Shown here piece after piece: positions 9,947 through 54,466 of a DNA stretch of 64,000 nucleotides. The notes beneath the pieces are model-generated. The model saw nothing but the letters and a program-made list of their open reading frames with translations, did not search any database and was not told the origin of the DNA. The position numbers were made by a program, and so were the translations under genes. Source of the DNA: a virus; the IMG/VR virus record IMGVR_UViG_3300044634_002329, positions 55,986 through 119,985 of that record; one strand, given 5' to 3'. How positions within the stretch are numbered: the stretch's first letter is position 1; each line of letters starts with the position of its first letter.

Positions 9947-9957
9947 TAACTTATATT

Positions 9958-12183: not shown

Positions 12184-12187
12184 ACTT

Positions 12188-12230: not shown

Positions 12231-12246
12231 TAGATAACAATAAATT

Positions 12247-21000: not shown

Positions 21001-21781
21001 TACATTACAACAAGCAGCATATAGTAGATTATATGAAAACATGTTTGGAGTAACTCCAACTATACATATTTTCCCAATTGAAAGAGAATCTAATAAAGAT
21101 ACTGAACAAGTTTTAACAGCAGGTAAACCAAGCAACCCTACTTTGTTTAATAATATTCAATATGAAATAGATCCAGAAACCGGAAATTTTGTACTAGATG
21201 CTTTTGGTAATCCTAAATTTACTATATTAGATAAAGGAGTAAATTCAAATAAATTTATACCTTTGTATATAGAGACAGTTCAAGATAGAATTAACTCTGT
21301 AATACCATTAAAAGCAGTGGCAACGGCTACTGAAAATGTAGTTGAGACTCCTGAAACTAATGAAGAAGAAGAAACACCTACAAAAAAGAAGAAGTCTAAT
21401 TTTGTTAATGATAATCAAAATGATCCATATACTGTAGGAACTATGGTATATGATGCAGATGGTAATTCATATCAAATAACAAGAAGATTTAAAAATGGTA
21501 ATGTGACTATTATAGGTTCAGATAAAACAAAGATTAAAATGACTATGAAAGAACTTGAAGAAAACTATAAACTTGAAAATGAAGTTTATAATCCAACATC
21601 ACCTACAGGAGAATACAATCTTACTCCTGAAGAAGATGAAACTCTTAAAAAATCACAAAACACTGTTAATGAATTTATTGATAGTGACACATTAGAAAAT
21701 AAAGCATTTGAAGAAGCTTTAACAGCTAATGAATCTGACATTAAAAATAGTCTATTTAATAAAATTATAAATTGTCAATAA
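15086..21781 (+). CDS. Giant cargo/ejection protein with C-terminal PD-(D/E)XK nuclease-like domain
   Basis: 2231 aa. Gly/Ala-rich hydrophobic N-terminal segments and 'EGVQESLQ'; 'IAGEIDLLIVDKDG..RIVDIKT' and 'QQAAY..L' at ~20850-21030. Confidence 0.7.
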   Translation: MATTNEETFSSLDPLGPEYGNINQPTLDNQGLSAFEGERIRDKQINFPTPQRFTPIAPGLNNLESPNQNVRRNVVNSAPNKPGINKNSSHQDLVNGINAKLRAKIQTNQDKNSYAKIYSYDAGPDANAFYKRYQAYGQETFDKIGFSPLRDNEALFNSRTTMWDDHVRMMKHSFWPLFSQGFTAGPKSLMKMFSGDFTSSDLEESKAYEEAAAIGQSNKGGIGGFTNNLLMNFAYSAGIMTEAVVEEVAGILLAPETLGASLFLTTANNLRKVGKIAKGVDRAIDGMKAVNTTLKSVDNFSSAKKFWESTKALSSSSFNPLKNTLQGFKDAQGTLKIGSEINNFTNLGKAYKTAGGFYKDVRNINMALSEARLEAGTVENKIYDNLYNEYYKEHGTSPDDAQQYEMIKQAKKGAVNTLYWNTALIYGSNTITFPNIVGPKGGLNNFMKNTVKELQTVEGGKFGKLGSIVYDKAKKQFEFQANDFKTYVKNWAKQPVYKSLKSTLGYTKANFTEGVQESLQEIISGANERYYTDSFKSPVIQSHTYAKGISQYNSMTQGDYMMAEAKKQMSSQGLETFASGFFMGTLASPINKSFDFLSVGYNRMFKPEVFQQYKAEKEKIATDTVKKLNEIDMKDFFDTRMFNYGVQDAVSSIKKTGTTKEAHDADHDGFMSQMDMLMRTGTLDVFKDKLKEMQQMSPEEVEENIPTIPKEEAKKYQARIDDTLTKIDRIEKRRDYYNQKFPNPVDIENVDASNVMQYEDDVALHYAWNDAIKHAVYFNETFEDTMQRKKDIVSRYLSKTPLKGMSQIDSEVLFDGNKLNNEIMMLTDEVAALKDLDDPQSKKQLKEKSKKLEAYEILSDASNNFKNFFNRYDNTEKLKAKLQKEKGEKPVTDEELEKALDEQYGEFSEENIGLYYANYANGYKKYLKMISNDDDMLFDQDIQESFILLADHHKLDKESRKLMSYVNLLHDPNGFIQQVERTKEWMKDLYRRRESYYKEMVDRELDNVEDNTLMNALADVGIYMSAEDYANYSDNGIPPKEFVDNVNKMVYKRGTQKYNEIYNEYLEKKDSLKASKVKKKTGTSTLKDTFNKKLEEINKKEQEELNALAKSKTRADVKTFETNSINITDTEFIKSQLEPEQYVELKYPENPKLNKIFFLDKDGVLKYDDVNGVPVDELDADFTQSGAYEATVFKYTEAVDPELKKEIQDKYQKQRDEILKEYNKDITYEGEEGEFTPIPENVTGDQIKKEHANFYQKEILPLFNAYLEKTYPDINDRLNIFEEEENEILTEFIKTPDIQAIIKAYNVKNSPVEDKADYILEFKGVKTDTSKASIDDLKALIIKIENEIESLKNNTTTNFSKNIIELETELTNLRGVIKGRAQKKYTPEQKAAIENVKRLQALNKKSVEAGVVLEQDDTVTGLKKGAIAYRINGKFHRRVSNVVDKLKKEGYNYTSEKDVRDAYAETIEVEGLTNDSVDKFIDELIKRNIAGSDGIFFEKLRSRLKSMVVEPVDVQIKNLQKQIAELNTKIADAKLKDETVKEQQYITAKEKIAEEIIALEMSQPSNDQSDIEAKKAELKKQIEALPDDMIYGAHVTQDQVAQDIFNSQFEYSLGTGLQGTIGLTSKKGLLTLMNNLLDGNSPHRNQFGVFITAWPKSEFGETTINNKVDLDKIESDMLDNYPEMSEGKIPTKFNFGYFKNGKLFTNNDKTVTEEPVTPGQNKTNHDDIVKMLDSNLKVKGVINQVEGSTGVSMSLDYWDKNKKVIFYNHDRTVTPEDYGKEVELRLIPVYQTEDGKVFNNAIEVWQGDRFLGLVAETDYVTPKEEKNLVEDVLELISENTYADSRTAGNYIDKAVKDLFSKGIQPKFVEGAITREAYDSLFGPDGYLTELKNQADNGDIFIASDNLVVWDSDIILPNKAKDRIAGEIDLLIVDKDGTTRIVDIKTGEQRTWNIFNSTQTKENTPVFAKRESFTLQQAAYSRLYENMFGVTPTIHIFPIERESNKDTEQVLTAGKPSNPTLFNNIQYEIDPETGNFVLDAFGNPKFTILDKGVNSNKFIPLYIETVQDRINSVIPLKAVATATENVVETPETNEEEETPTKKKKSNFVNDNQNDPYTVGTMVYDADGNSYQITRRFKNGNVTIIGSDKTKIKMTMKELEENYKLENEVYNPTSPTGEYNLTPEEDETLKKSQNTVNEFIDSDTLENKAFEEALTANESDIKNSLFNKIINCQ

Positions 21782-24700
21782 TGATAACTTGTCCTATTAA
21801 TGATCCAGAAATTGTAAGTTTATTATATAAACTTATTGTAATTAAATTAAATAATTTTTCAAGTAATGAAACATTTGATCATGAAGCTTTTTTAAAAGAA
21901 TTATATGATGAAATAGCTGATAAAACTTCACCAGAAGTAGCAGCTAAATATTTACAGTCTGTACCAAGGTTACTTAGTTTAGCTGCTATTAAAAGGTTTG
22001 AAAATATTGATATTGATACAACTGCATTAAATAAATTAAGTAGAAAATTTAAATCAGAAACTGGTATTGCTGAGATCATTCAAACATATTCTACTGATTC
22101 TGATGAAGAGTTACGTAGAAAAATTAAGGAAAAAGAAGATGCAGAAAATAAAATACCTGTTGAATCAACTAGTGATCAACCTGTAATATTATTACCAACT
22201 AGATTTAAAGCAGCTTCTGCAGCTTCTGGAACTTTACAACAATTTGTAAAAGTTGACCCTAAGAAAAAAGGTCAGCATGATGAAGTAATTATTGAGACTA
22301 TTGATCCTGAATTAGAAACAACAATAAATGTTACTAATAAAATAAATGACTTACAAAATACTACACTACCAGGTGAAGAACTTAAATATCAAGGTAAAAC
22401 ATTAAGATTAAAAGTACAAGATGTTGTTGGTTTTAGAAAAGAATATTCTGATAAATTAAGAAAAAATGATGAAGAAAGTTTAAAAAGAAGTTCTGCTATT
22501 CTTGCACAAGGTAGTAAACTAGGAGATGTTATACCTATAAATGCACAAAGTTTATTAGTAATTACTGATGATAATGGTAATTTCTTATACTTTGATAAAG
22601 ACGGTAACATTACTGATGAAGCTAATGGTAATATTGTATATCAATTTTTAAGACCTGTAAGAAAAGACGGTAAAGAATATACTGTTACTAATGTATATAC
22701 AACTGAAAGTAGTGTTGCAACTCCAGAACAAATTGCTCAACAAACATATGATCAAAATTCAGATATTGATTATGATGCATATGTAAAAGCAATAAAACAA
22801 CAACAACAAGAAGAATTTAAAGCTCTTTATGGCATACAAGAACAAATTAAGTCAGGAGATAAAACAAGTATATTACTCCCTATTACTGGAGTATCATCTG
22901 GTGTACCAAGTAATTTATCAAGTACTATCATTTATTTAAATGAATTATCAAAATTTCCAGGACTTGATATAGCATCAATATTAACTAGTATTAATGTTAT
23001 AACATCTGATACAGCTAGTTTTAAAAAAGGTCAAACAACTGTACGTATTAATGGTGGTGAATTTAAGATTAATAATCCTAGAATGAATGAGGAATTAATG
23101 TCTGAAATTGCCGCTATGCTAATGGATCCAAACCCTCCTGCATCATTAAAACAAATATATCTTAATCAATTTATTGATACAACAAAAGATACAACACGTA
23201 GAATTCAATTTAATTCTATTGACAATACAATTGAATTATATAAAAAAACATCTACTAAAAATTCTTCAGGAACTTATACATTTGGTAAAGTAATTAACCG
23301 TACTATTGATTTAGAAAAACTTAAAAATAATGGATATACTGAACAAGAACGTCAAGATCTTGAAAAAGATATATTACAATATTTAAGAGAAGGTTTTAAA
23401 AATGGACCTACATTAATTAATATCAACAGTAGTTTAATTAAAAATCAAAAAGAATTTATTAGATATAATAGAGATACTAAAGAACCATACTCAGGTGACT
23501 ATTTAGAATTTATATCTTCTTTTCCTGCAGAAATTAATTTGATTAATGCAGATCCAGGTATTTATAATAGATCAATAGAGTTTGCATTTCCAGGAAGTTT
23601 TATTGATGACTTACAAAAAGCTGATAAAAATTTAAATAATACAGAAGGAGAAAACTTAAGCTTTGAAGAAATTCTTAAAAGAAAAGAAGAAGAGGACAAT
23701 AGAAATCCTGTTAAAGTAGAAGCACGTGATATTATTGCTAATTCAAAATCTGAAGAATTTTTAAATAAAGTTAAAAACTATCCAGGTAATACTAATATTA
23801 ATCCAACAGATAATTTTCTACTTGTTGCATACTTTAAAGCAGCTATTAAAGAAAAAAACTATACAAAAGAATTTGCTAATAGTATTAAGAATGAAATTCA
23901 AAGTCTTTTACCATTAAATCCTTTAAGTGTAGAACAAGTTAAAATGATTGAAGATGAGATTGATGCTATTAAAGAAGTACCAAGTCCTTCTCAAACTCAA
24001 GCAGAAATCAAAGATCAGGTAGAAGTACCGGGTGCTCCTGATCCGATAAATAATGCTACTACTAATGGGATGTTTACTGATAATGATATAGATGATGATA
24101 TCTTTAAAGGTTTATTCAGAAGAGGTTCTAAAGATGAAAAGATAGCTAGAGAAAAAGTTATTGCAGCTAGAACATGGTGGAATAGTCCTGAGTTAGCTCC
24201 TTTAAGAAAAGTTATTAGTCTTGAACATGTAGCTAACTTAGTTAACTCTGATGTATATGCTTCTTTTATTACTAATGCTAGTAAAATAGCAAACCCTGAT
24301 GGGACACTTGGTAAGATTACTGCTAATACAGCAAAAGGATCTGTATTTCAAAACTTAACTATTTACCATGAAGCATGGCACGGATTCTCTCAATTGTTTT
24401 TAAGTAAACAAGATAAAATTGATTTGTATGAAGAGTTAAGAAATTATACCACACCTAAAGGTGCAACTCCTTATGCTACTAAATCTTATTTGGAACTAGA
24501 GGAAATGTTAGCAGAAGACTTTAGAAACTATGTTAAAACCGGTAAAGCTAAAGCATCTTCTCCTAAAAGAAATACTTTGTTTAGAAGAATGGTGGAGTTC
24601 TTAAAACAATTATTTGGTAAAGGATTAAAAAAATTCAATAACAAAGATGTTCTTATTAATAGCCTTAATTCACCAATGGCTAAAGAATTATTTGACAAAC

Positions 24701-27700
24701 TTTATATTGGAGATATTAATAAATATACACCTTTAATTGATAACTCTATGTTCTACTCATTAGATAGAGGAGTACCTAGTGTCAATAATAAAAGAAATGT
24801 TGTATTAAGTAAACAAGATTCAACACTTGCTGTATCTTCTATAGATGGTATTTTTAGTCAAATTTTAAATACTATTAATGAAAAAGCTAGAGTTGCAGGT
24901 AAGTCAGGAGCTAAAGGAGCTAATATTGCTGTATTTTTAGAACCATCAAGAAGAGCTGCATTATATGTTCAAGCTAAAAAAGAATTAGAATCTAAATTAA
25001 AAATAGAAAAAGATAAATTAGCTAAAGTAGAAGGTATTGTAAACTTTAGTACATTAACAACACTACAAGAAATTAAAGATAATGCAGCTGGTGTATTTGT
25101 AAACTCAGAAGGTAAGAACAAATTTATATTTTTAAAATCTCAAATTGATGATTTTACAATATTAGAACCTTCATTAAAAGCTAATGGTGATAGAGTTAAA
25201 GGAGAAAAATACCACGGGATTAAAATTGTATCAGACTTTTACAAACATAAAACCATTTTAAATGGTAAAGTTCCTGCTGATATTATGGTTGTAACTTCAA
25301 TGGCACAAGCTGAAGAACAATTAAAAAATTATATTGATGGTAACTCAAAAGCTTATACTAAAGTAATTGATAATAAATTAGAAAATCCAGTATTATTAAC
25401 AGAAGATCAAGAATTTATTCAAGACAATATTAGAATTCTACAAACTATGCTTGACAATTACGGAGATGAAAACTCTGGATTGGTTAAGTATCATATGGAG
25501 AATAGTGACTTTGAAATATCTAAAACTAAATATGAGTTAGATGTTATTGATGAAAACAATGATGAAGCTATTAGTGAAAATGATTTAGAAAATTCAGGAA
25601 GAGATATAGAAACATTTAATGATGTAAAAAAACATAAACAGTCTTTACTTCAAACGATGAGTAAAGAAACTACTATGTTACTTAAAAGTCTTATTAAAAC
25701 AGATGGTAATAATGTTGTTAAAAACAGATTAGGATTTCCTGAAAGAGTTGATTTTATTAAAGTATTTAATATTGTAGCTAAAACTATTGGTGGAGTAAGA
25801 GATAGAGAACTGGCTTATAATTTATTAAAAGCTGAAGCTTCAAAGTTTCCTGAAATTCAACAGTTAATTGATTTTAAATATCCAGATCCTAATACTAAAA
25901 ATTCATATGAATTTGATATTAGTAGACAATTTTTACAAGATTTTGGAAAACCAAAAGTTACTTATAAAATTGTATTAGCTGTACCAGATGAAGAATCAGG
26001 TACAATTGATTTTAAATTAGCAGAAGCATCTTTAGCAATTAGTAATATTACAGGTAGATGGCAAACAGAATTTGTTAGTGCATCACCTAGTAGATATATT
26101 AAGAAAACTCCAGATAATGAATCTGAACTTAATTTACAAAATATACTTACTGACTTTAGTAAAAAAGATGAATTAGTTATAAGTAAAGCATTTGACTTTG
26201 CTAAAGCTATAGGTATTAATCTAACTGTAAATGATAATATCAAATCTGATTTTGATTCTAAATTAGAATACTATGGTATTCCGTTTATGTTTAATATAGT
26301 TAAAGACTTTGCTCAAATAGAACAAGATTTAAACAATCCGGCTACTGCTGCATCTGTGTCATCTGCACAAAAAACATTTCTTAATAAATTTAAAGCTAAC
26401 CCTATTGAAGTTTTAAGAACAGCAGTTCCTATAAATATTTTAACTACCTTTCCTAAAGGTATTAATGAGAATACTCAAATCACTAGATTAGCTGAATTAC
26501 AAGCTAAATACGGATATGACTCAGCAACAACAGGTGTAATTACTGCAGATGGTAATACAGCTTATGAAGATGTTAATTACAGTTTTATGACAGGATTTGT
26601 AGATGCTGTTAACTCTGTATCTAACATAAGAGATTTATGGACTAAGAATGAATATAGCCACATGGCTTATTTAAATCCTAATACTAATACATTTACTAAG
26701 AACTTAAGAATATTAAATGAAATATTTGATATGCATACTGGTGCAAAAAAACCAGGTAAGTCTCTTCAGTTAATGAATGTAAATGGTACTAGTCAAATTA
26801 CAGAAGATGAAAATGGTAACTCAAATACTGAAGGTACTGTTACAGCTGACTTAGATCCAATAGGAAAAGGATTACAAGAATTACATTCTATGTTAGGAGG
26901 AGGTGTCTCTGAGTTTAATAGAATGTCTGAAAAGAAAAATGCATATGGTCTTAAAGTAGTAGGAGGTATTGTTGGTAAAACAGATCCTATTAGTTATGCT
27001 ACCAAAGGAGCAGATACAGACTTATATGTAGATGTAATCCAATTTGCTAATAATGGTAATGGAGAAATCTATGCTATTAATAATCATTTCCTTGGTTATA
27101 TCCAATCTGAATTTGACAGAATAGTTAAATTCAAAGGTAACAGACGTGAAGAGTATTTAAACTTTACAGGATTTAATAACAAAGTAAATGATGTAAACGG
27201 TGTTGAAAAATATGCAGGTGAAGTATTTAATGACTTTGATGATATCCTATCAAAAGATACACAAAATCAATTATATGCTCTTGCTGATCAATATGCAAAT
27301 AGTAATGAAGTTAATATACCTTTAGTACAATATTTAAAAACTAATTCTAAGTTATTAAAAGATATTCAAACAGATATTACTAATTACTTTGATACTGTTA
27401 CAGAAAAATATAAAACACTTTACTTTGATAAATTACCTTATATATCTAAGTCAATACTAGTAAAAGCAGGAGTACCTAAAGAAAAACTACTAACTAGAAA
27501 ACAAGTTGAAGAAGCTCAAGAAGATCCTAAAAATATTCAGACAGTTCTTAAAGCATTTATGTATAATGACTGGATTCATAGATTTGAGGTCTCCTCTTTA
27601 ATGTTTGGAGATAGAGCACAATGGAATCATGGTAAAGAAGAACAACCTAAACGTATTCCAGGAGCACAATCTGATGGTATAGGATTTCTATATGATCAAT

Positions 27701-30700
27701 CTTCAAGAGATTTTATTAATGATGTATTTAATAAAACTACTGAAACATATGGTGCCAAATTAACTAGAGAGTCTGAAGATAATACTAAGTATGATTCATT
27801 TAAATATTCAGATGTACTTAATACTGCAGTTATTAAAGATGCTCAACGTGAATCTATTTATTTAGCAGAATATCAAGCTGCATGGAAAAAAAATTATATA
27901 GAAGTAAACAATTATTCTGAAGAAGAAGCAGATAGATTAGTAGAATTAGATTCAAAACCTTTTAGAAAAGATAAAATGGATGAATCTGATGGTATTGCTT
28001 ATATGACTCTTGATGCATATAGAACATTACATAAAACAGGTAGAGGTTGGTCAGTAGCTCAAGAAGCATTGTATCAAAAAGTTGTAGCTGGTGAAACAAT
28101 TTCAACACAAGATGCTAAAGAATTTTTTCCAATTTACAAATTACATTATTATGGTTCATTAAAAAATGATTTGTTACCAGCTATGGCTATGCATAAGTTT
28201 TCTGTAGCTCCTTTAATTCCAGGTGTGTATCCTGAAACTAGTGAATTAGGAAAACTACATAAAAAAATGTTAAAAGATAATGTTCAATATGTAACATTTA
28301 AATCTGGTTCAAAAGCAGTTACATTAACTAATGGAGGGAATGTAGATAACTTATTTGCTAACAGTAATGAAAACAGTATTAATGAAGATTTTACTTTTAC
28401 TGTTAACCCAATATTCATGGCTAACTTAAAAGAAGTAACAGTTATCAATGAATACTACAAAAAAACATTACCTATTGCTACTCAAACAAGAGTAATCATA
28501 TTAGATAACTTATATAATGATGGTAAATTAACTAATTCAGATAATGCACCGTTAGTTAATGATTATAAAAATGTAGTTAGGGATTATTCAATTGTTTTAA
28601 AAGATGAATTATTAAATAAAATTGGATACTCTCTTAATGAGGATGGAAATTATGAAGGTGACATTACTACTTTTGTACAGGTATTAAGAGAAGAGTTAGG
28701 TAATAGAGATATCCCAGAACAGTTATTAAAATTACTTAACACTACTAAAGAAGGTAAATTATCTATAGATCTATCTTTACATCCTCAAGCAGAAACTATT
28801 GAAAAGTTATTATTAAGTATTATCCAAACTACATTAATTAAACAACAGACTAATGGGGAACCATTAACTCAAATGCCGTCTACATTTACAAATGGTATCT
28901 GGGATGATCAATATAAAACATTAACAAATCCTGCTGATATTGAAAGATTATTAGGAACTAATACTCTTCCTTTTTATAACATTAATAAAACTACAGGTAA
29001 AACCAACTTAATGAAAGTTGCTATTGCTTTACAAGGGGAGTATAAAAATTTATTGAAAGCAAAAGACTTAGATGGTAATGTAATTGGTACTATTGACAGA
29101 TTAAATGAATTAATTAAAGATGATAAATGGTTAGAACAAAACCGTGATGCTATTTCATTGTTTGGACCACGTATTCCTAATGATGCTACAAATACAATTG
29201 AAGGAGCTGAAGTATGGCATTTCTTTAATGAAAGTTTTGGTAATGCTATTATATTGCCTACTGAAATTGTAGCTAAAGCTGGGTCAGATTATGATGGAGA
29301 TAAGTTATTTATGTCAATGCCAAACGTTGATAAAGATGGTAACTATATTAATAAAGGAATTGATAATTATGATGCTTTATTAAAAGAAACTATTGCATTA
29401 GAAAAAGATGGTAAACTAGGTAAAGACAGATTAAAATCAGGTCAATTAATTGAACTTCAAAAAAAATATTTACAAAACTTATATCTTAAAAAATCAATTG
29501 ATCTTTTAACTCTTCCTGATAACTTTGGATATTTAACTAAACCAAATCAAACATACTTAGTTGAAAAGTATGCAGAAGATTTACAAAAATTAGGCACAGG
29601 ATATAATAGATATGAAAGTGCTACTCATGGTAGTCCAAAAAAATCTGTGGGTCCTAAAGATAAACAAAAAGATGTAGTTAGTCCTACAAGACAAAATGAA
29701 ATTAGCCATCAGTTATATTTACATGATGCTAACTTATCTTTAGAGCCTTCATTAGGTGTACAAGCCAACTTTACTAAAAGTCATGTATTATATAAAACTG
29801 TTGGTGTAAATATGCCGGCTACTTATACTACTTCATATACTAACTTTTCAGTTAATAGAGTAATTAAAAGTTTAATTGAGTTGCCTATGGTGATGAGACT
29901 AAAACATAATACTGCAATTAATGAAGCTGGTAAAGAAGTAATATCATTATCTGGAGAAAAAACTCAATTAGGTACTAGAATTACTGATATTAATTCACAT
30001 GCATTAAATGGTATTTTAGATAGAGCTAAGAACTCTTTCCCATTTGATTTAAAACTTGTACCAGAAGCTATTAATACGTTAAACTACATGCTTCAAGCAG
30101 GTGTTAGTGAAGAAGAAATTTTTTACTTTTTAACTCAACCATTAATAGTTGAATACATTAAAGATCAAAAGTTAAGAAAAAGTCCTTACTATAGTATTGT
30201 ATATGGTGAATCTAAAGGTAGTAAAACTACAGCATCTGCAAATGCTATAATTCAAAATATGATTAATGTAAAAGGAGTAGATTTTACTTCATATTTAGCT
30301 GATATTAACTTACTAAAATTAAAAGCTACATTAGAATCTTATGCTGCTTCTGCTAAAAAAAGTAAAGAAGCTTATAATGTAAAATTAAAAGATGAGTCAA
30401 TTTTATACACTCTTACACCAGAAGAAATAATTAATAAAATTAATAACGGTGATATTGATCCAACAACAATAAAAAAAATATTTAATAGTAATGCAAAAGA
30501 TGCATTTGAAGAAGTAACTGAATCAAAAGAATTGTTTACAGATAAAAATTATGCATTTACTACTCAAGCATTCTCAAATGCTTTTTTACCAGAAGGGATA
30601 ATTAATATTGACTTTTTAAAAAAACATATTAAAGATTCTAGTAGTCCTGCTGCCTTAACATTGTTTTTTAATTATTTAGAATTAGAACAACAATATGAGG

Positions 30701-33700
30701 GTATGAGTGAATTAGAAAAAGTATTTAGTCCAGATAAAATTAAATTAACTACAGCTCAACAAGTGATTAAAAGAGAAGAAGCATATAAAAATTTATATGA
30801 AAATAGTAAAGTTGATAAAGCTTCTCTTGAGAGATTAACAAAACAATCTGTTTTATCTTCTTTTAATCAAGATAAACTAATATTAGATTTAGTTACTCCA
30901 TTGTTCCCATTAAGATTAAGTAATGAAATTTCTAGTTACATTACTAAATTATTTAATGATCCAACTGAAAGTCGAAAAATTAGAAATAAGTTTGGGACAG
31001 GTATTGATGGTCAAGAATTCTTTACTAAAAAATATCAAAATGCAATTGTAGCATACATTTATCAAAACTACATGTCTAGATTTGTTAATGCTGATGGTAC
31101 TTTGACTAATATTCCGGAATCTTATAATGGTAAACCAGTACTAGTTAATAATGATATCAATACTAATGTTATTATAGATAAAGATAGTATCATAATTAAT
31201 AGTGATAGAGTTAGAACTGAGTACCAAAGAAAAGTATATTTAAGTGCAAATAAAAATGTAGGATACACAGGTGATAAATTTGCAAAAGATCCTTTTAATA
31301 CTTTAAATAGTTACTATAGATATACAATTGAAAAAGAATTATTAAGAACAAGTATTCCTATTGAAAGTTTAGAACAAAATAAAGATTTTCTTAATTTATT
31401 AAATACTTATAATACTGCAGACGAAGCATATGAATCATATATTTCTGAAAAAGCTTTAGCTAATACTTATAATAGAAGCTACATTGTTGGTACAGCTAAA
31501 TATAGTTATACTGAAAAAGTATTAAATATTATTAAAGAGTTTGAGAATACAAACTTAAAAGATAAATATCCTATACTAGCTCAACTAGCTCCTGTTAAAA
31601 CTAAAAAAGCTGTAAAATTAATTCAGTTAAATGATAAACAAATAGCTAAAGGAGTATTAGGTGAAATATACATTAACAACTTAATTAATTTAGCTAACCC
31701 TATTATTAAAAAAGTTGATGATCCTATTGATAATCAAAGAATTAGTGACGTATTTAAAGATTTTTCTTTAATGATGTTTTATCAACATGGAGTTGGTAAT
31801 AGTAAATTAGGTTTTGTAAATGCTATAGACCCTGAAGTTTATACAGAAAGTATGACTAAGTTTTCTCAACAGTTTTTAAATAACTATTTATCAGATGATT
31901 CATTGACTGATGTTTATAATATGCTAATGGCTCCTGGTAATCTATTTGGTAACTTTGAAATTAAAGATGTAGAAAATGAAAAACCATACTCTAAAGCAGA
32001 TCAGTTAACACCTTTTGAATTACCAGGATCTACTTCTCCTGTGGCTAATATACCACAAAATAAAATATCTGGAGTAGCTTCTTTTGGATCTACAGTTACT
32101 GCAAATGATGAAGTAATTAAAGTACTTGGAGCAAATGCACATTCTATAGATATGATAGAATCTGGTTTAAGAACTAGGACTACAAGAAGTGAATCTGAAA
32201 TGGCAAAATATGCTGTTAAGGTGGGAGATATCATTAAGCATTTTGGTAAGTCTGCTGATGGTTCAACTAAAACTATTTTAGCTAAAGTAACAGCAATACA
32301 TCCTAAAGGAACACCTGGATTTAAAGGTACTTGGAATAAAGAAGGTTGGAGATCTGAAGATGTAAATGTTATAGACAGATTTAAAGATGGTGCTGCAGCT
32401 ATTGAGTTTGAAATAATTAATAATAATCAAACACCAGGATCTACTTCTGTTAATAAAAAAGTTATTAAAAATGAAAAAGGTTTAATTATTATTAATAATG
32501 CAATTCCTACAGAAAAAACTATTGATATTGTAAAAAATAATAAAGATTTTATTCAAGAAACATCTTTTAAACAAACAAATGGTTCAGTATCTTGGGGTTA
32601 TGGTATGCAATGGATTAGAAGTTCTGCATTAACAGATAAACAAAAACAAGGTGTTCAAATAGGAAAACAAATTGGTGGACAAGAAGTAACAGAAGAAATG
32701 GTAAATCAACTTCTTGCTGGAACTGAAGCAAAGAAAATTAAAGGAATGCCTTTATATGTATATACTAATATTGATATAAATGGAAATAGATTACCTAATA
32801 TACCTAATGAGATAATAGAAATACTGTTAGAACAAGGTATTGATGTATCTCAATATGATGCAAGTTATAATTCTGTATATGATAAAAATGACAAAGGAAG
32901 TCTTATTGTTCATCAGGATAATACAGAATTTAACACATCTCCTATTATTACTGTGTCTTTAGGTAGACCAATGAAATTTATTACATATCAATTAAAAGAT
33001 TCTAGTAATTATTCATTTGGTACAAATGCTAAAAATAGATATGAATTAACATTAAATACAATATCTAATAAACTTGTAGCTGGTAAATTAGCTCCTGAGT
33101 TAAAAAGACAAAAGAATTTTAAAGGTGATGAAGTTATAGGTTATGGTGAACTTACTCCAGGTAATTTAGCTAAATATGCTAAAATGGTTGGAGAAGAATC
33201 TGCAGCATTAGATGCATTAGCTAATTCAATAGAAAAAATTGAAGAACATACTTTAACTAATGGAGCTGTTTTAGTATTCTCTAAAGAAAATAGAAATGTA
33301 TTTCATGAAATTATATTTGATGAAGAAACAGATGCATTACCTATGCCTAAAGGTTTTCCTGAATTAACTATTAATAAAGCTTATAAAGGTTTAGGTAAAC
33401 CAGATCAAATGGTTAAAACTAAAGACTATAGAGTTGTATTAACACTTAGAAAAGTTAACGGCACTAAAGAATTAGATGTAGTTGATACAAATAAACTTAC
33501 AGCATCTCAACCTACACAAGTTCCTACACCTATTCAACCTATAAGTGATATTGATAATAGTAATAAACCTGTATTAAATAGTCTTCCTAATAAGTCATCT
33601 ATCCCAACTATGACTTATGCGGGTATTGGATCTAGACAAACCCCACAAGAAGTTCTTAATAAAATGACTGAAGTAGCTAAGTATTTAGATGGCTTAGGTT

Positions 33701-36700
33701 ATACATTACAAACTGGTTTTACATTTAAAGATAAAAATACAGGTTTAGATGAAGAAGGTGCAGATAAAGCATTTTCAGATGGAGCTCAAAATAAAATATT
33801 GTTTGGACCTTCAGGTATTAGAAAAACAATAAATGGAGAAACATCAGTAGATACATATAATCCAAATGTAACTACTAAATCTACTGATGTGGTTAAAGAA
33901 GTACATCCAGCACCTGAAAAATTAAGCCCAGGAGCTTTAAAGTTAATGGCAAGAAATACTAATCAAATCTTTGGTAAAAATCTTGATAGTACAGTAGATT
34001 TTGTAATATTCTATGCTCCTGAAACAAACAATCCTTTAAGACCTAAAGGTGGTACAGGACAAGCTGTAGAAATGGCTAGAAGAAAAGGTATCCCAACTAT
34101 TAATTTAGCTAATAGTAATTGGAGAGAAGAGTTAAAAACTGCACTTGCTAATAGATCTACTCAATCACCTACTAAAGTTGAAGTAAAAGCTTTTAGAACA
34201 TCAGGTACTTTTTCATCTACAGTAGACTATGCACAAAGAGGTTCCGGAACATATTATGCATTAGATAAACCATTTCAAGAACTAGGAAGAACAGATAAAG
34301 TTGAAGAAGTAAATGTATCTTATAACCCATCTAAAACTTTAGATGCAACAACTGAAGAAGGTCAATCTAAATTTATGGAGATTAAAAGAAAAGCTGTTGA
34401 AGGTAAAACTTTTGATGAAATAAAAGATTTAAATGATGCAGTTTCTCAAGAAATGATGAATAATGGATATGAGTCATTAATTGGTTGGATTGATGAAGAT
34501 GTACCTAATGTAGGTAGAGAACTTGTTATATATCCTACTCAATCATCTACTGATACAAACTATCAATTACCACAAAATAGAGAATTAGAAGAATACGTAG
34601 CATCTGAAAAAACTATTAGAGATTTAGCTGCTAGAATGTCTGATAGAATAGGTATACCTTTTATATTTGAATCTGATAGAACTAAAGAATATAAAGGTAA
34701 ATTAGAAAGTGATAGACAAGTATTAGATGCAGATCCTGAAGATGGAGTTACTTATGGAAATGTAAAAAATACTGCTTTTATTAATTTAGCTTATGCTACA
34801 TTAGATACTCCTATACATGAAATATTAGGCCACCCTATTATCAGAGCTATTAAAAATAATACAAAAGGGACTTTTTATGAACCTAAATATGACAATTCTT
34901 TAAATCAATGGGTTATTGAAGAACATAAAATTGATGATTATGATGTTCATTTTTTTAATACAAAAAAAGAAGCTGATGCTTTTTATAAAAGTAAACAAAG
35001 TCAACTTTATCAAAACTTACTTAAAGAACTTGAAACAGGTAAAGGTAAAGAAGTATTAGATAGAATTAAAAGAGATTATAATAAAAAATTTGAAAGAGGT
35101 AAATCATTTACATTTGAAGGTAAAGATTACATTGCAGATAATGCAAGTAAAACAGGTTATAGAGATAAATATGGAAATGATGTAGAGTCTAATGAGTTAG
35201 AAATTAGTTTATTTGCTTATGAATTAAAACATAAAGATAAAATTTATTATACTTTAGAAGAGCAACAAGAAGAAGCTCTTGTAGAACTTTTAGGTATGAT
35301 GACAGCTGGAAAACTTGATGCAGTTAAAGATGGTAATTTAATTTCTCTTTTAAAAAGACTTCTTAAAGAAATAAAAACTTTTGTAAAAGATCTTTTAAAA
35401 CAAAAAGAAATAGAAATAAATAAGTTACCTGATAATATGACATTAGGGGATATATCTGATATATTAGCTTATAGTAATTCTAAACTTATACTCCCTGGTA
35501 ATGAAGTAGAATATACTACTCCTGATAATCAAAAATTTAAAACTTATCAAGAAGCAAGTAATCATATTAGTCAATTAGTTAAAAATATTAAAGATGTTGA
35601 TTTAGATAATATTAAGATTGAAAATAAAGGTATTCCTAATCATTTTCAAAAAGATACGTATCAAGGAGACAGAGACTATACTGATTGGTATTCATTTAAT
35701 GATGGAAAATATTATGTAGAACGAGATGGACAAAATTATGAAGATGGTTTTAGTAGAACAAAAGAAATAACTAAACAAGAATTTGAACAAGCTTATATAG
35801 ATTCTCAAAACTATGGAGGAATGATTGGTAAAGGTACTATTGATTCTGATATTACTTCTTTTATAGCAAAAAATAAAGAATATGAACAATCTAAAGAAAT
35901 TATAGATGAATGGAAAAAAATAAATAATATTCAATATAAACCAGAAGAAATATATAGTAGAGGTCAAGAATTTACTTCAGTTGTTGGAGCTTATTCTGAT
36001 TTTGATGTAAATCTTATGATGCAAAATTTATTATCTCATATTGAAGATAATGAAAAAGCTGGAGGTAAATTTGCAATATCAGCATTTACTAAACCTATTG
36101 ATAAAAAAATATCACATCTAGAAGGGGGAGGAGGTAAAATTAAATTTAAAATTTATCCACAATCTCAAGATATTTTATGGGCTGCTAATATTGATGTATA
36201 TTCTGGTAGTGTTTGGGATGCTGCAGACAAAGTAAATAAAGATAAAAAATCTGAATTACTTGGAGTAAGTTATACTAAATATCCTTCATTAGACAATGTA
36301 AATGCTGTACAACCTAATTTAGCTTCTATTGTAGATGATTTAGCTCATCATCATAATGAATTAGGTATTTCTTTAACTGGTAATAACTTTAGATTAGAAT
36401 ATGATGATAATATTCCTAACACAACTAAAAAAATTATTGATAGTATTAATTCTATATTAGATCAAAAATATGGTAAAATAATTAAACCTGAAATTAAAAA
36501 ACAAGAACAACAAATAATAAAATATGGGTTATTTAGTAAAGGTGCTAATGATATTTTAGATGAGTTTAATACAAAAGAAGAAGCTCAAACTGCTGTAGAT
36601 TTTAATAATAAATTATTAATTGATGGAGGAGAGTCAGCAGACTATTCTGTAGTTCCAATTAAAAATATAGGTATTCAACCAACTCAAACTAAAAATAATA

Positions 36701-37551
36701 TAAAAGAAGATATTAAAGATGTTAGAGAAAAAATAAGAAAACAATATGATGAAACTATATTTCATAAATATAGTAAAGATGAATTAGAAATTGTTCCTTT
36801 TGAAGATCAAAAAGGTTATTTTATAATTCAAACTAAACAAAAAAATGCTAATGGTTATCCATTAGATGATACTATTAATATTTTTAAATCAGAAGATTTA
36901 GCTAAAGCACATATTGAAAAAAATTATAATGAATTAAAAACAATAAAACCTAAACCAGATTATACTACACAAGCTTTAATTAATACTAAAATAGCTGCAC
37001 TTAAAGAAATAGCTAAAAAATATCCAAGAACTTTAATTAGAAATGAAGTTAAACCTATAAATGAATTAAAATCATTTAATCAATTTGAAATAGATGAATT
37101 ACCATTTCAAAAATTAAAGTCTAAATCTTTTATTAATAATAATAATATATCACCTATAGAAAATGATCAAGAAATGTTTAACCAAATGGTTAAACAAAAC
37201 AATGGTCAATACCCTAAAAGATTTGAAAATCAAGGTAGAGTTTGGTTATTAAATGCAAATAACTTATATGATTCTATTGATGATGTATCTAAAAGTATCA
37301 TTATTAAAAACATGAATATGGTTACTGGACAAATTGAACCAGAAATAAAAACAGAAACACCAGTTAATCAAGAAGAATTATTTAATTTTATACAATCAAT
37401 TAATAATTCAATTTTAAATGAAGGGTTAGATGTAATATTAGCTAATAATGGAATAAATGTACAAGATATTCTTGATGAAGCTAGTAAAGTTACAACTCAA
37501 GAAGAATTAACTGATTTAGAAAATAATTTAAAGAAATACATATGTCGTTAG
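21781..37551 (+). CDS. Virion-packaged DNA-dependent RNA polymerase polyprotein (crAss/phi14:2 gp66-like) with zincin and multiple accessory domains
   Basis: Catalytic 'GSDYDGDKL' at 29281-29307 preceded by 'PRIP'; HEAWH...EEMLAEDF zincin motif at ~24367-24522. The true start is probably ATG 21781 (TAATG overlap) rather than TTG 21772. Confidence 0.85.
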   Translation: MITCPINDPEIVSLLYKLIVIKLNNFSSNETFDHEAFLKELYDEIADKTSPEVAAKYLQSVPRLLSLAAIKRFENIDIDTTALNKLSRKFKSETGIAEIIQTYSTDSDEELRRKIKEKEDAENKIPVESTSDQPVILLPTRFKAASAASGTLQQFVKVDPKKKGQHDEVIIETIDPELETTINVTNKINDLQNTTLPGEELKYQGKTLRLKVQDVVGFRKEYSDKLRKNDEESLKRSSAILAQGSKLGDVIPINAQSLLVITDDNGNFLYFDKDGNITDEANGNIVYQFLRPVRKDGKEYTVTNVYTTESSVATPEQIAQQTYDQNSDIDYDAYVKAIKQQQQEEFKALYGIQEQIKSGDKTSILLPITGVSSGVPSNLSSTIIYLNELSKFPGLDIASILTSINVITSDTASFKKGQTTVRINGGEFKINNPRMNEELMSEIAAMLMDPNPPASLKQIYLNQFIDTTKDTTRRIQFNSIDNTIELYKKTSTKNSSGTYTFGKVINRTIDLEKLKNNGYTEQERQDLEKDILQYLREGFKNGPTLININSSLIKNQKEFIRYNRDTKEPYSGDYLEFISSFPAEINLINADPGIYNRSIEFAFPGSFIDDLQKADKNLNNTEGENLSFEEILKRKEEEDNRNPVKVEARDIIANSKSEEFLNKVKNYPGNTNINPTDNFLLVAYFKAAIKEKNYTKEFANSIKNEIQSLLPLNPLSVEQVKMIEDEIDAIKEVPSPSQTQAEIKDQVEVPGAPDPINNATTNGMFTDNDIDDDIFKGLFRRGSKDEKIAREKVIAARTWWNSPELAPLRKVISLEHVANLVNSDVYASFITNASKIANPDGTLGKITANTAKGSVFQNLTIYHEAWHGFSQLFLSKQDKIDLYEELRNYTTPKGATPYATKSYLELEEMLAEDFRNYVKTGKAKASSPKRNTLFRRMVEFLKQLFGKGLKKFNNKDVLINSLNSPMAKELFDKLYIGDINKYTPLIDNSMFYSLDRGVPSVNNKRNVVLSKQDSTLAVSSIDGIFSQILNTINEKARVAGKSGAKGANIAVFLEPSRRAALYVQAKKELESKLKIEKDKLAKVEGIVNFSTLTTLQEIKDNAAGVFVNSEGKNKFIFLKSQIDDFTILEPSLKANGDRVKGEKYHGIKIVSDFYKHKTILNGKVPADIMVVTSMAQAEEQLKNYIDGNSKAYTKVIDNKLENPVLLTEDQEFIQDNIRILQTMLDNYGDENSGLVKYHMENSDFEISKTKYELDVIDENNDEAISENDLENSGRDIETFNDVKKHKQSLLQTMSKETTMLLKSLIKTDGNNVVKNRLGFPERVDFIKVFNIVAKTIGGVRDRELAYNLLKAEASKFPEIQQLIDFKYPDPNTKNSYEFDISRQFLQDFGKPKVTYKIVLAVPDEESGTIDFKLAEASLAISNITGRWQTEFVSASPSRYIKKTPDNESELNLQNILTDFSKKDELVISKAFDFAKAIGINLTVNDNIKSDFDSKLEYYGIPFMFNIVKDFAQIEQDLNNPATAASVSSAQKTFLNKFKANPIEVLRTAVPINILTTFPKGINENTQITRLAELQAKYGYDSATTGVITADGNTAYEDVNYSFMTGFVDAVNSVSNIRDLWTKNEYSHMAYLNPNTNTFTKNLRILNEIFDMHTGAKKPGKSLQLMNVNGTSQITEDENGNSNTEGTVTADLDPIGKGLQELHSMLGGGVSEFNRMSEKKNAYGLKVVGGIVGKTDPISYATKGADTDLYVDVIQFANNGNGEIYAINNHFLGYIQSEFDRIVKFKGNRREEYLNFTGFNNKVNDVNGVEKYAGEVFNDFDDILSKDTQNQLYALADQYANSNEVNIPLVQYLKTNSKLLKDIQTDITNYFDTVTEKYKTLYFDKLPYISKSILVKAGVPKEKLLTRKQVEEAQEDPKNIQTVLKAFMYNDWIHRFEVSSLMFGDRAQWNHGKEEQPKRIPGAQSDGIGFLYDQSSRDFINDVFNKTTETYGAKLTRESEDNTKYDSFKYSDVLNTAVIKDAQRESIYLAEYQAAWKKNYIEVNNYSEEEADRLVELDSKPFRKDKMDESDGIAYMTLDAYRTLHKTGRGWSVAQEALYQKVVAGETISTQDAKEFFPIYKLHYYGSLKNDLLPAMAMHKFSVAPLIPGVYPETSELGKLHKKMLKDNVQYVTFKSGSKAVTLTNGGNVDNLFANSNENSINEDFTFTVNPIFMANLKEVTVINEYYKKTLPIATQTRVIILDNLYNDGKLTNSDNAPLVNDYKNVVRDYSIVLKDELLNKIGYSLNEDGNYEGDITTFVQVLREELGNRDIPEQLLKLLNTTKEGKLSIDLSLHPQAETIEKLLLSIIQTTLIKQQTNGEPLTQMPSTFTNGIWDDQYKTLTNPADIERLLGTNTLPFYNINKTTGKTNLMKVAIALQGEYKNLLKAKDLDGNVIGTIDRLNELIKDDKWLEQNRDAISLFGPRIPNDATNTIEGAEVWHFFNESFGNAIILPTEIVAKAGSDYDGDKLFMSMPNVDKDGNYINKGIDNYDALLKETIALEKDGKLGKDRLKSGQLIELQKKYLQNLYLKKSIDLLTLPDNFGYLTKPNQTYLVEKYAEDLQKLGTGYNRYESATHGSPKKSVGPKDKQKDVVSPTRQNEISHQLYLHDANLSLEPSLGVQANFTKSHVLYKTVGVNMPATYTTSYTNFSVNRVIKSLIELPMVMRLKHNTAINEAGKEVISLSGEKTQLGTRITDINSHALNGILDRAKNSFPFDLKLVPEAINTLNYMLQAGVSEEEIFYFLTQPLIVEYIKDQKLRKSPYYSIVYGESKGSKTTASANAIIQNMINVKGVDFTSYLADINLLKLKATLESYAASAKKSKEAYNVKLKDESILYTLTPEEIINKINNGDIDPTTIKKIFNSNAKDAFEEVTESKELFTDKNYAFTTQAFSNAFLPEGIINIDFLKKHIKDSSSPAALTLFFNYLELEQQYEGMSELEKVFSPDKIKLTTAQQVIKREEAYKNLYENSKVDKASLERLTKQSVLSSFNQDKLILDLVTPLFPLRLSNEISSYITKLFNDPTESRKIRNKFGTGIDGQEFFTKKYQNAIVAYIYQNYMSRFVNADGTLTNIPESYNGKPVLVNNDINTNVIIDKDSIIINSDRVRTEYQRKVYLSANKNVGYTGDKFAKDPFNTLNSYYRYTIEKELLRTSIPIESLEQNKDFLNLLNTYNTADEAYESYISEKALANTYNRSYIVGTAKYSYTEKVLNIIKEFENTNLKDKYPILAQLAPVKTKKAVKLIQLNDKQIAKGVLGEIYINNLINLANPIIKKVDDPIDNQRISDVFKDFSLMMFYQHGVGNSKLGFVNAIDPEVYTESMTKFSQQFLNNYLSDDSLTDVYNMLMAPGNLFGNFEIKDVENEKPYSKADQLTPFELPGSTSPVANIPQNKISGVASFGSTVTANDEVIKVLGANAHSIDMIESGLRTRTTRSESEMAKYAVKVGDIIKHFGKSADGSTKTILAKVTAIHPKGTPGFKGTWNKEGWRSEDVNVIDRFKDGAAAIEFEIINNNQTPGSTSVNKKVIKNEKGLIIINNAIPTEKTIDIVKNNKDFIQETSFKQTNGSVSWGYGMQWIRSSALTDKQKQGVQIGKQIGGQEVTEEMVNQLLAGTEAKKIKGMPLYVYTNIDINGNRLPNIPNEIIEILLEQGIDVSQYDASYNSVYDKNDKGSLIVHQDNTEFNTSPIITVSLGRPMKFITYQLKDSSNYSFGTNAKNRYELTLNTISNKLVAGKLAPELKRQKNFKGDEVIGYGELTPGNLAKYAKMVGEESAALDALANSIEKIEEHTLTNGAVLVFSKENRNVFHEIIFDEETDALPMPKGFPELTINKAYKGLGKPDQMVKTKDYRVVLTLRKVNGTKELDVVDTNKLTASQPTQVPTPIQPISDIDNSNKPVLNSLPNKSSIPTMTYAGIGSRQTPQEVLNKMTEVAKYLDGLGYTLQTGFTFKDKNTGLDEEGADKAFSDGAQNKILFGPSGIRKTINGETSVDTYNPNVTTKSTDVVKEVHPAPEKLSPGALKLMARNTNQIFGKNLDSTVDFVIFYAPETNNPLRPKGGTGQAVEMARRKGIPTINLANSNWREELKTALANRSTQSPTKVEVKAFRTSGTFSSTVDYAQRGSGTYYALDKPFQELGRTDKVEEVNVSYNPSKTLDATTEEGQSKFMEIKRKAVEGKTFDEIKDLNDAVSQEMMNNGYESLIGWIDEDVPNVGRELVIYPTQSSTDTNYQLPQNRELEEYVASEKTIRDLAARMSDRIGIPFIFESDRTKEYKGKLESDRQVLDADPEDGVTYGNVKNTAFINLAYATLDTPIHEILGHPIIRAIKNNTKGTFYEPKYDNSLNQWVIEEHKIDDYDVHFFNTKKEADAFYKSKQSQLYQNLLKELETGKGKEVLDRIKRDYNKKFERGKSFTFEGKDYIADNASKTGYRDKYGNDVESNELEISLFAYELKHKDKIYYTLEEQQEEALVELLGMMTAGKLDAVKDGNLISLLKRLLKEIKTFVKDLLKQKEIEINKLPDNMTLGDISDILAYSNSKLILPGNEVEYTTPDNQKFKTYQEASNHISQLVKNIKDVDLDNIKIENKGIPNHFQKDTYQGDRDYTDWYSFNDGKYYVERDGQNYEDGFSRTKEITKQEFEQAYIDSQNYGGMIGKGTIDSDITSFIAKNKEYEQSKEIIDEWKKINNIQYKPEEIYSRGQEFTSVVGAYSDFDVNLMMQNLLSHIEDNEKAGGKFAISAFTKPIDKKISHLEGGGGKIKFKIYPQSQDILWAANIDVYSGSVWDAADKVNKDKKSELLGVSYTKYPSLDNVNAVQPNLASIVDDLAHHHNELGISLTGNNFRLEYDDNIPNTTKKIIDSINSILDQKYGKIIKPEIKKQEQQIIKYGLFSKGANDILDEFNTKEEAQTAVDFNNKLLIDGGESADYSVVPIKNIGIQPTQTKNNIKEDIKDVREKIRKQYDETIFHKYSKDELEIVPFEDQKGYFIIQTKQKNANGYPLDDTINIFKSEDLAKAHIEKNYNELKTIKPKPDYTTQALINTKIAALKEIAKKYPRTLIRNEVKPINELKSFNQFEIDELPFQKLKSKSFINNNNISPIENDQEMFNQMVKQNNGQYPKRFENQGRVWLLNANNLYDSIDDVSKSIIIKNMNMVTGQIEPEIKTETPVNQEELFNFIQSINNSILNEGLDVILANNGINVQDILDEASKVTTQEELTDLENNLKKYICR

Positions 37552-46307: not shown

Positions 46308-47351
46308 TTATAATTTTACATTACCTAATGCTAATTCATATGGTAAAGTATAATCCCTATCACTATAGTGATAATCTACTATAGTTAATATTTCTTGGAA
46401 CTTTTCTTTCCATTGAATTAGGGTGTCTCTTGATACTTGGAAAGGATAAATTTGGTTATACTTATCTATTACAATAAAGGTAATAACAATTTTCCAATCT
46501 GCAGCATCCGGTAAATCTTTTATATAATTGACCCAACAAAGTTGCTCATACATTACTGCTTGTATCCAGTATTTATAATACTCAACTGCATTAGGAAAAT
46601 CCTGTAAAGGTTTACCCGTTGTTTTTAAGTCATTTACAAATAGAATTTTTGTATTATAATCAAGTACTACATTATCAAGAATCCCTTTAAATCCAAATTT
46701 GTATTTAGCAGGTTCTGTTTTTAATGCTTGTTCATTTAAAATTTTTATGTTTGGATCAACAACACCAATTTGTAATAACTGATTAACTACTAAGTTATTT
46801 CTTAATGCTAATACAGATTCATTACATGCATCTAATGTTAATTGATCTACAACTGTTTTGTTTTCTTTTGCTTTTAAAAAGTTAAAATATTCTTTGTTTT
46901 GTTCTGTAAGTACTTTGTCTAATCTTTTTTTGTCTCCAGTATTTGTTACATCTTTTTTATCATCTACTAAGCTTTGATATAAATTCATAACTTCTAACTG
47001 TGTAATGATTTGATCTTTGAAATCTTCAAGTTCTAATGTATCATTTTGTAAATCAAGATAATCATGTTTAAACAATGTATCTAGTAAAAGCCTGATATTA
47101 TCATTTGGCATTTTCCCAGGCATTACAATAAACTGATCTTTAAAGTTTTGTGGCTCTAATAATAAGCAATGTAAAACTCTTCCGGATACAAGATGTGCAT
47201 CAGTACTATCCTCTCTTTGTCTCAGTATGTAATGAGAATAAAACATACTTGGTGAAAACAATAATTTATTTATGCTACTGTAGCTAAAATAAAATGTTTC
47301 ATTATAAAATTTTTGTAGTTCATCAGAACCAGTCAATGTCATTAGACCCAT
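46308..47351 (-). CDS. PD-(D/E)XK exonuclease (RecE/exonuclease VIII-like)
   Basis: 'SYSSI', 'GRVLHC.LLEP', 'FKGILD......DLKTT', 'Y..QA..Y'. Confidence 0.8.
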   Translation of the reverse strand: MGLMTLTGSDELQKFYNETFYFSYSSINKLLFSPSMFYSHYILRQREDSTDAHLVSGRVLHCLLLEPQNFKDQFIVMPGKMPNDNIRLLLDTLFKHDYLDLQNDTLELEDFKDQIITQLEVMNLYQSLVDDKKDVTNTGDKKRLDKVLTEQNKEYFNFLKAKENKTVVDQLTLDACNESVLALRNNLVVNQLLQIGVVDPNIKILNEQALKTEPAKYKFGFKGILDNVVLDYNTKILFVNDLKTTGKPLQDFPNAVEYYKYWIQAVMYEQLCWVNYIKDLPDAADWKIVITFIVIDKYNQIYPFQVSRDTLIQWKEKFQEILTIVDYHYSDRDYTLPYELALGNVKL

Positions 47352-54424: not shown

Positions 54425-54466
54425 AGAACAAATATACAAATAATATACTACATTCCTAATATATTT

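Follow-up and report, generated by a model that had tools for sequence, protein, structure and literature searches.

The giant ORF and its domain array

The stretch of DNA analysed here, hereafter the window, covers 64,000 nucleotides (nt) of IMG/VR virus record IMGVR_UViG_3300044634_002329 (positions 55,986 to 119,985) and belongs to the genome of a lake phage, complete at 119,985 bp and bearing direct terminal repeats. Its (+) strand carries a giant open reading frame (ORF) of 5259 amino acids (aa) at 21772–37551, listed with a TTG start, in which residue n begins at position 21772 + 3(n − 1). The first ~3397 aa (21772–31962), which include a region resembling an RNA polymerase (RNAP), form a core that is conserved in relatives at 30–49% identity, and a second conserved module of ~130 aa (37150–37548) closes the ORF in nearly all relatives. 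Between these two ends lies an array of domains joined by short linkers, and this array, together with the DNA that encodes its linkers, is the subject of this work. All features of the ORF described below are on the (+) strand.

The identity of the core rests on homology. The motif DYDGD, within AGSDYDGDKLF, is found at aa 2506–2510 (29287–29301), and its D[FY]DGD form is kept in four relatives (L001, L006, L038 and L043); we take DxDGD to be the defining motif of the Crassvirales virion RNAP. A tblastn search with the 800 aa around the motif (aa 2056–2855) matched cr108_1, whose record is classified as Crassvirales, Steigviridae, at E = 6e-22, as well as Rudgehvirus jaberico (E = 6e-8) and crAss002 (E = 6e-6), the latter two in genes annotated ‘putative RNAP catalytic subunit’. 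Given this homology to annotated crassvirus RNAP subunits and the DYDGD motif, we designate the giant ORF a putative virion RNAP of the crassvirus type. No PDB chain was matched in sequence searches (phmmer) of this ORF and of the two further giant ORFs that neighbour it (2231 and 1088 aa), nor in a profile search with the RNAP region.

Four domains and one large block make up the array. The first domain, D1 (32038–32432), is delimited by its predicted fold and by a block of DNA homology with relatives. Its model, predicted from alignment A4, is only moderate (mean predicted local distance difference test score (pLDDT) 62.8, with 75–86 in the core), and the best Foldseek match was YqfB (E = 2.2e-4, prob 1.0), with PH0355 (3.2e-4) and an ASCH protein of L. 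crispatus (1.1e-3) also matched. The predicted model confirms an ASCH/PUA-like beta-barrel fold for D1; hmmscan gave no match of D1 to Pfam ASCH (PF04266) at E ≤ 5, the Atlas lead to it being 0.83 only. D2 (32449–33504), likewise a DNA homology block, is an AlkB-like 2-oxoglutarate (2OG)-Fe(II) oxygenase that matches 2OG-FeII_Oxy_2 (PF13532) at 41.9 bits against a gathering cut-off of 31.2, while its NCBIfam AlkB matches are weak and far under their cut-offs. Its translation shows HQD, a later His and RVVLTLR, which are presumably the iron and 2OG ligands. D3 (33541–34156) is DprA-like/SLOG-like, as indicated by its match to PHROG 768 (DprA-like, E = 8.6e-45) and by tblastn matches to phage genes annotated DprA-like; Pfam DNA_processg_A had no match in the window and a weak one in L001.

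D4 (34174–34534) is an ART-like domain, delimited by its predicted fold and by contig and protein matches. Its model has a pLDDT of 92.5, and when it was compared with 48,161 chains by VIA-align the top rows were of the ART fold (MbcT, Z 6.0; NatT, 5.0; ParT, 4.5; diphtheria toxin, 4.5), with the AcrIF11 entry 6kyf and tankyrase further down at Z 4.1 each. These Z values are modest, and Foldseek returned no match at E ≤ 0.001 (E values of 0.1 or more). We regard the ART fold of the D4 model as confirmed by VIA-align Z values of 4–6 and by the coherence of the match list. ART-PolyVal (PF18760) was not matched by D4 in Pfam at E ≤ 5, and the Atlas clusters that D4 hits at 0.93 carry PF18760 on only 12–20% of their members. 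In alignment A3, R11 is nearly invariant and R118-E119 invariant, and we consider these putative catalytic residues. The D4 model (34165–34543) also matches residues 1418–1594 of the cyanophage A4 pre-ejectosome chain 9k3a_B (Z 5.5), an ejection protein of similar fold from an unrelated phage.

The remainder of the array, D5 (34552–37149, aa 4261–5126), is a large block with no family match that contains the motif HEILGH. Homologues of D5 are found as a separate 1091-aa ORF in L084 (9731–13003) and inside a 2297-aa ORF in L083 (4742–11632). In L010, L023, L031, L036 and L042, the C-terminal module is a separate ORF of 309–310 aa (~9080–10007), overlapping the final part of the giant ORF. In Pfam and NCBIfam, neither D1, D3, D4 and D5 nor the C-terminal module had a significant family match. 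Among GenBank phages we found no DNA match to the array, and a protein search gave stand-alone DprA-like genes only.

Two pairs of short direct repeats lie at the borders of these domains. The sequence ACCAGGATCTACTTCT occurs at 32022–32037 (aa 3418–3422) and again at 32433–32448 (aa 3555–3559), encoding a PGSTS linker (codons CCA GGA TCT ACT TCT) in equal codon phase at a spacing of 411 = 3 × 137. The second pair, CTACTCAATCACCTACT at 34157–34173 (STQSPT) and CTACTCAATCATCTACT at 34535–34551 (PTQSST), differs by one base between its copies and is also in frame, with a spacing of 378 = 3 × 126. Each pair flanks one folded domain, D1 and D4 respectively, and each motif is confined to its own two sites in the window even with three mismatches allowed. 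D5 homology begins directly after the PTQSST linker. A further linker, SQPTQVPTPIQP (33505–33540, aa 3912–3923), separates D2 from D3. An earlier note on this DNA had claimed the two repeats from the letters alone; their positions, frame and bracketing of domains were confirmed from the sequence and an exact-repeat listing.

By itself the length of the repeats is not beyond chance. Codon shuffling of the giant ORF produced at least one exact 16-mer pair in 80% of 200 trials (one observed, shuffle mean 2.2), and pairs of 17 nt or more with no more than one mismatch numbered 12, where 40 codon shuffles gave 11.8 on average. That shuffling yields such repeats as often as observed is what would be expected if both pairs were chance matches between compositionally similar low-complexity linkers, with no role. 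The location of the repeats, unlike their length, is not chance, since all four copies sit at cassette borders that are independently defined by blocks of DNA homology with relatives, and since the copy at 34535–34551 belongs to a joint, ACT CAA TCA TCT ACT, that is common to the family. Moreover, three of the 12 near-repeats of the ORF are spaced by less than 500 nt, where by our own estimate ~0.7 would be expected, and strain-level breakpoints coincide with the repeats. Chance matching is therefore already disfavoured, and we give it next to no credence.

Several other features of the locus were apparent. A third in-frame near-repeat in the ORF, encoding LSKQD (24398–24414 and 24803–24819, spacing 405 nt), adjoins an HExxH motif, IYHEAWHGF, at aa 866 (~24367–24381), which lies in the N-terminal part of the protein, has no Pfam match and was seen in the letters only. 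Cysteines of the three giant ORFs (15086–40808) are confined to their ends, at aa 2230 of the 2231-aa ORF, aa 7 and 5258 of the 5259-aa ORF and aa 6 of the 1088-aa ORF, and a neighbouring 950-aa ORF lacks cysteine altogether. No PHROG matched the neighbouring giant ORFs, and the structural ORFs upstream yielded little in that database.

Domain content and breakpoints in relatives

Relatives were assembled from two scans of IMG/VR. The array served as query in one, which gave five loci; the other, anchored on the conserved ORF downstream and free of bias towards linkers, gave 54 more. The ORF set excludes L002 and L003, of different architecture, and L005, a duplicate of L004. Identical variable regions were collapsed to 34, and L047, which nearly duplicates L044, was also omitted. 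A metagenome scan contributed only two loci, L083 and L084, neither of them close to the window.

Across the 34 non-identical relatives, the core aligned to window aa ~3376–3445 and the C-terminal module from ~5096–5146, and the high-scoring segment pairs (HSPs) of the core stop at window aa 3376–3445 in most of them. The stretch in between ranges from 207 to 2073 aa and differs in content. D1 stands alone in L004 and is followed directly by D3 in L037; L001 has D2, an extra domain and D3; P0005 has D1 then D4; and in L084 D3 precedes D1 in a separate 628-aa ORF. The partial relative P0002 has in common with the window only D4, matched from linker to linker (TQS... to ...PTQ, 124 of 128 residues identical), and the C-terminal module (112 of 131). 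In 19 longer proteins, homologues of D4 are found at differing places, in every case matched over the full domain. Pfam identified further cassette types among the relatives, namely NADAR, SF1 helicase and cpYpsA SLOG. These comparisons show that related phages hold different sets and orders of cassettes. In L002, a 1450-aa protein (8909–13258) on a 141-kb contig has an AlkB-like and then a DprA-like domain, the order seen in the window, at 54% identity and with linkers of a related QPLQST type.

We found that homology within the array starts and stops at linkers, as judged by alignment of the sequences. DNA homology with relatives forms blocks that correspond to single domains: 32036–32439 for D1 (82–86%; 85.6% to L004/L030), 32454–33515 for D2 (83% to L001) and 33560–34186 for D3, with the adjoining core at only 64–69%. 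At the protein level, 32 of 151 clusters of HSP ends fall at a distance of up to 5 aa from a linker (4.7 expected; maximum of 17 in 1000 simulations), and 36 of the 45 internal linkers have an HSP end no more than 15 aa away. When junctions were compared between genomes with 60-aa flanks, 97 pairs were homologous on one side only and none on both. With 120-aa flanks the counts were 120 one-sided and three two-sided at a score of 60 (two at a score of 80), so the zero is threshold-dependent; the junction of D1 with the AlkB-like domain in the window and L051 scores 522 on one side and 59 on the other at this flank length.

Breakpoints at the strain level were sought in assembled Logan contigs. 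In run X6, one contig has a match that spans exactly 34157–34551 with unlike sequence on either side, and the match of another ends at 33537; several further X6 joints with sides shorter than 30 nt were left unused. Runs X3, X4 and X5 gave short contigs only, identical to the window. The earlier note had proposed a swappable cassette array with a variable payload, whose breakpoints in relatives would fall at the linkers. Because the domain content of relatives is not invariant, and because homology blocks, HSP ends, junction pairs and the X6 contigs all place breakpoints at linkers, this proposal is supported by the comparison.

Synonymous sites give some indication of when cassettes were acquired. 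Four-fold third-position identity is 0.70–0.71 for D1 against L004/L037 and 0.67–0.72 for D3, compared with 0.47–0.52 for the core, which shows that some cassettes are younger than the core, though only some demonstrably so. The cassette identity of 78–86% at the amino acid level was rejected as general proof of recent transfer, as it holds by this measure for D1 against L004/L037 and for D3, fails for D1 against L032/L051 and barely holds for D2 against L001.

A conserved in-frame linker motif

The linkers of the array belong to a family that is recognisable both as peptide and as DNA. In frame, the motif reads ACT CAA YCN WCT ACT..., encoding TQP(T/S) or TQSSTSV, with the DNA-level variants ACT CAA followed by CCT ACT, by CCA TCT ACT AGT GTT or by TCA TCT ACT AGT GTT. 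Such linkers stand at domain borders in the variable C-terminal array of 21 non-redundant relatives, out of the 34 variable regions. The 4-mers TQPT, TQPS, QPST and PTQP rank with the most frequent in the variable regions, where they occur 15, 13, 16 and 12 times in 26,843 aa; the cores, totalling 81,388 aa, contain none of them. A regular expression for the linker matched 52 times in variable regions and 12 times in cores, and across 1.2 Mb of loci the DNA motif was found on the coding strand only and almost only in arrays.

One form of the motif is an exact 21-mer with 33 copies in 23 IMG/VR contigs, all in frame as TQSSTSV and set in diverse, unrelated flanks. In L028 (3027–6434), seven different cassettes are parted by one 21-nt joint, ACT CAA TCA TCT ACT AGT GTT, two copies of which carry one change; Pfam recognised a 2OG oxygenase, NADAR and an SF1 helicase in this variable region. 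Both repeat pairs of the window are copies or variants of these conserved linkers. When the joint pattern was searched in the complete 119,985-bp genome with up to one mismatch, only the two array sites were found, with no spare joint or cassette elsewhere; any exchange must therefore be between genomes. The gut crassvirus cr108_1 has none of the joints in its RNAP-homologous block, and as this is a single genome (n = 1) we make no claim on gut crassviruses. That block (L085, MT774385.1, 43014–72405) is split into ORFs of 2968, 799 and 1715 aa.

Within the DNA compared, the PGSTS pair is a variant confined to this window, not a family-wide joint, and its length is within chance. It flanks D1 on both sides and was absent from the rest of the window and from the loci searched by regular expression, and D1 has other linker variants in L004, L032, L037 and L051. 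Both observations would fit repeats that are footprints of exchange rather than its substrate, in which a cassette arrives together with one linker and leaves the same variant on both sides, much as an insertion duplicates its target site. Such an origin leaves unexplained why one nucleotide motif recurs across many genomes and cassettes, and we think it very unlikely; a repeat could, even so, be footprint and substrate at once.

Codon usage within the linkers bears on whether they are kept as DNA or as peptide. The first Thr of the linker is encoded by ACT in 42 of 45 cases (background 0.52) and the Gln by CAA in all 45 (background 0.77); in the TQSS linkers, the first Ser is TCA in 13 of 13 (background 0.25) and the second TCT in 13 of 13 (background 0.39). 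Linkers from different genomes share a codon with a probability of 0.83 at Thr and 1.0 at Gln, compared with 0.48 and 0.63 for conserved residues of the core. With one linker taken per genome, 18 of 21 still use ACT (p = 0.0014) and all 21 use CAA (p = 0.004). We consider this codon fixation suggestive of a DNA-level constraint or of recent spread of the joint.

A competing explanation is that linkers are kept for a reason at the protein level, either as an unfolded spacer for passage through the tail or as a cleavage site of a polyprotein. Shuffling would then proceed by illegitimate or longer-homology recombination, with selection retaining the events that fall between domains, and DNA identity would be a by-product of ancestry and codon bias. 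Consistent with this, the T-Q dipeptide is almost invariant, the linkers use the commonest codons, the PGSTS segments have a pLDDT below 50 in the D1 model, and the length and flanks of linkers vary between genomes around the same cassette. A review of the Crassvirales calls cargo proteins likely partly unfolded (PMC10136315), and peptidase processing into units is proposed for polyvalent proteins in the main text of PMC5512222. Against it, the fixed codons include synonymous ones that are not preferred (TCA, and AGT with a background of 0.28), codon sharing in linkers exceeds that in the core, the 21-mer is exactly kept across 23 contigs with unrelated flanks, and Pfam detects no peptidase family in the protein. 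A TQ followed by Pro, as in many linkers, would also be an unusual cleavage site. On balance we think it rather unlikely that a protein-level reason accounts for the linkers.

Proposed exchange at linkers, possible delivery and known systems

Taken together, we consider it probable that the last third of this giant RNAP-containing protein of a crAss-like phage is a polyvalent effector array whose cassettes are reassorted at linker DNA. In this array, the domains lie between the conserved core (to ~aa 3400) and the ~130-aa C-terminal module, in the order ASCH-like, AlkB-like, DprA/SLOG-like and ART-like, followed by the large block of unknown function. Short linkers of Thr, Gln, Pro and Ser, specified by a nucleotide motif that is conserved and in frame, connect one domain to the next. 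Crossovers between co-infecting phages would take place within linker DNA, guided by its short sequence identity, and a crossover placed there would keep the reading frame and leave folded domains intact. Were the two linker copies around a cassette to recombine, the cassette would be lost in frame, by a deletion of 411 or 378 nt in the window. The array may be packaged and ejected together with the polymerase, a suggestion made by analogy with crassvirus virion RNAPs as reviewed in PMC10136315. Once ejected, it could act early on host nucleic acids, nucleotides or proteins, probably against defence.

A number of observations weigh against reassortment at linker DNA. Stretches of 12–21 nt are short for RecA-type homologous recombination, and no annealase was identified in the phage, where the only candidate function found was an exoVIII-like nuclease (46308–47351). 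Many of the HSP-end clusters (99 of 151) lie more than 30 aa from a recognised linker, and the regular expression recognises no linker in 12 of the 34 variable regions. The codons preferred in linkers (ACT, CAA, CCT and TCT) are those most used in general, and codon bias may thus account for some of their fixation. Linkers within a genome resemble one another more than those of different genomes when L028 is included (0.835 versus 0.682, with 0 of 2000 permutations reaching the observed difference); without L028 the values are 0.713 and 0.677, a difference reached in 217 of 2000 permutations and therefore not significant, which also accords with a protein-level role for the linkers, and general concerted evolution of linkers was rejected on this ground. 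The third-position identity of D1 to L032/L051 (0.44–0.46) and of D2 to L001 (0.55) points to constraint and not recency, and the length of the window repeats, as described above, is no evidence. The repeat-to-repeat deletions that the earlier note had anticipated were absent from the assembled contigs, none of which joined 32037 to 32433 or 34173 to 34535; as contigs drop rare variants, this is weak evidence either way. The comparative predictions of the earlier interpretation are supported; recombination between linker microhomologies, as the putative cause, draws only indirect support, from the fixation of synonymous codons.

The exoVIII-like nuclease, a PD-(D/E)XK protein encoded at 46308–47351 (−), adjoins a 435-aa ORF (47323–48630, −), and the two may constitute an exonuclease-annealase recombination pair. 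The replication module also contains two genes for HNH-type endonucleases (49877–51175 and 53543–54439, both −).

Assemblies of unrelated domains in single phage proteins have a precedent in the polyvalent proteins of phages and conjugative elements, for which delivery with the DNA has been proposed (Iyer, Burroughs, Anand, de Souza and Aravind 2017; PMC5512222, in its main text). There, virion RNAP and ART domains are among the parts, domain sets vary, and recombinational variability is raised by analogy with polymorphic toxins. The 5259-aa ORF is alike in uniting ASCH, 2OG-FeII_Oxy_2, DprA-like and ART domains. It differs in its polymerase, which is of the crassvirus type with DxDGD where that of the polyvalent proteins is N4-like. 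Pfam detected no MPTase-type or other peptidase for processing (E ≤ 0.01 for the whole protein, E ≤ 5 for the array). The word ‘linker’ is absent from the main text of PMC5512222, which accordingly describes no conserved nucleotide-level joint, and a search of open-access main texts gave no account of crassvirus polymerases with a translated joint of this kind.

By analogy, CdiA is the nearest mechanistic counterpart. As reviewed in PMC7662968, the VENN motif marks the border of an exchangeable toxin, functional chimeras have been made at the motif, and homologous recombination in conserved sequence beside VENN, involving orphan cdiA-CT/cdiI modules, is proposed to swap modules. The array resembles CdiA in having a short conserved motif at the border of a variable, exchangeable domain. 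In CdiA, however, only the C-terminal tip is swapped, an immunity gene is included and orphan modules lie in the same genome, whereas here several internal cassettes are held between two conserved ends, with no evident immunity genes and no spare joint in the genome.

Mosaic tail-fibre and lysin genes also exchange modules in frame between phages at short conserved stretches. Those are host-range modules of structural proteins, unlike the enzyme domains on a polymerase-bearing cargo protein described here, and the joint differs in being 12–21 nt long and repeated up to seven times per gene. Integron arrays, in turn, consist of whole-gene cassettes with attC sites and a dedicated integrase. The array shares with them ordered, exchangeable units, each with a short recognisable DNA boundary site; it departs from them in that its units are protein domains within a single reading frame and its joint is translated. 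We know of no dedicated recombinase for such a joint. A bolder possibility, which we hold as doubtful, is that the translated joint of 12–21 nt is a dedicated recombination site, identical as DNA throughout a clade of freshwater crAss-like phages and a protein-coding counterpart of attC at which phage-encoded functions swap domains in frame between co-infecting phages. Were this true, each lineage would obtain its own injected counter-defence kit.

Multi-domain polyvalent proteins of phages are known, and the present array bears on how such proteins change their domain sets: the DNA itself shows the borders of exchange, as one short in-frame joint that recurs between unrelated domains. If this joint guides crossovers, it would represent a natural, frame-preserving means of swapping protein domains, and would suggest a testable design rule for chimeric phage cargo proteins in laboratory strains. 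It would also allow the effectors of an abundant and uncultured group of phages to be listed, as anything between two joints would be a candidate unit, in a cassette pool that so far includes ASCH, AlkB-like, SLOG, NADAR, ART and SF1-helicase domains.

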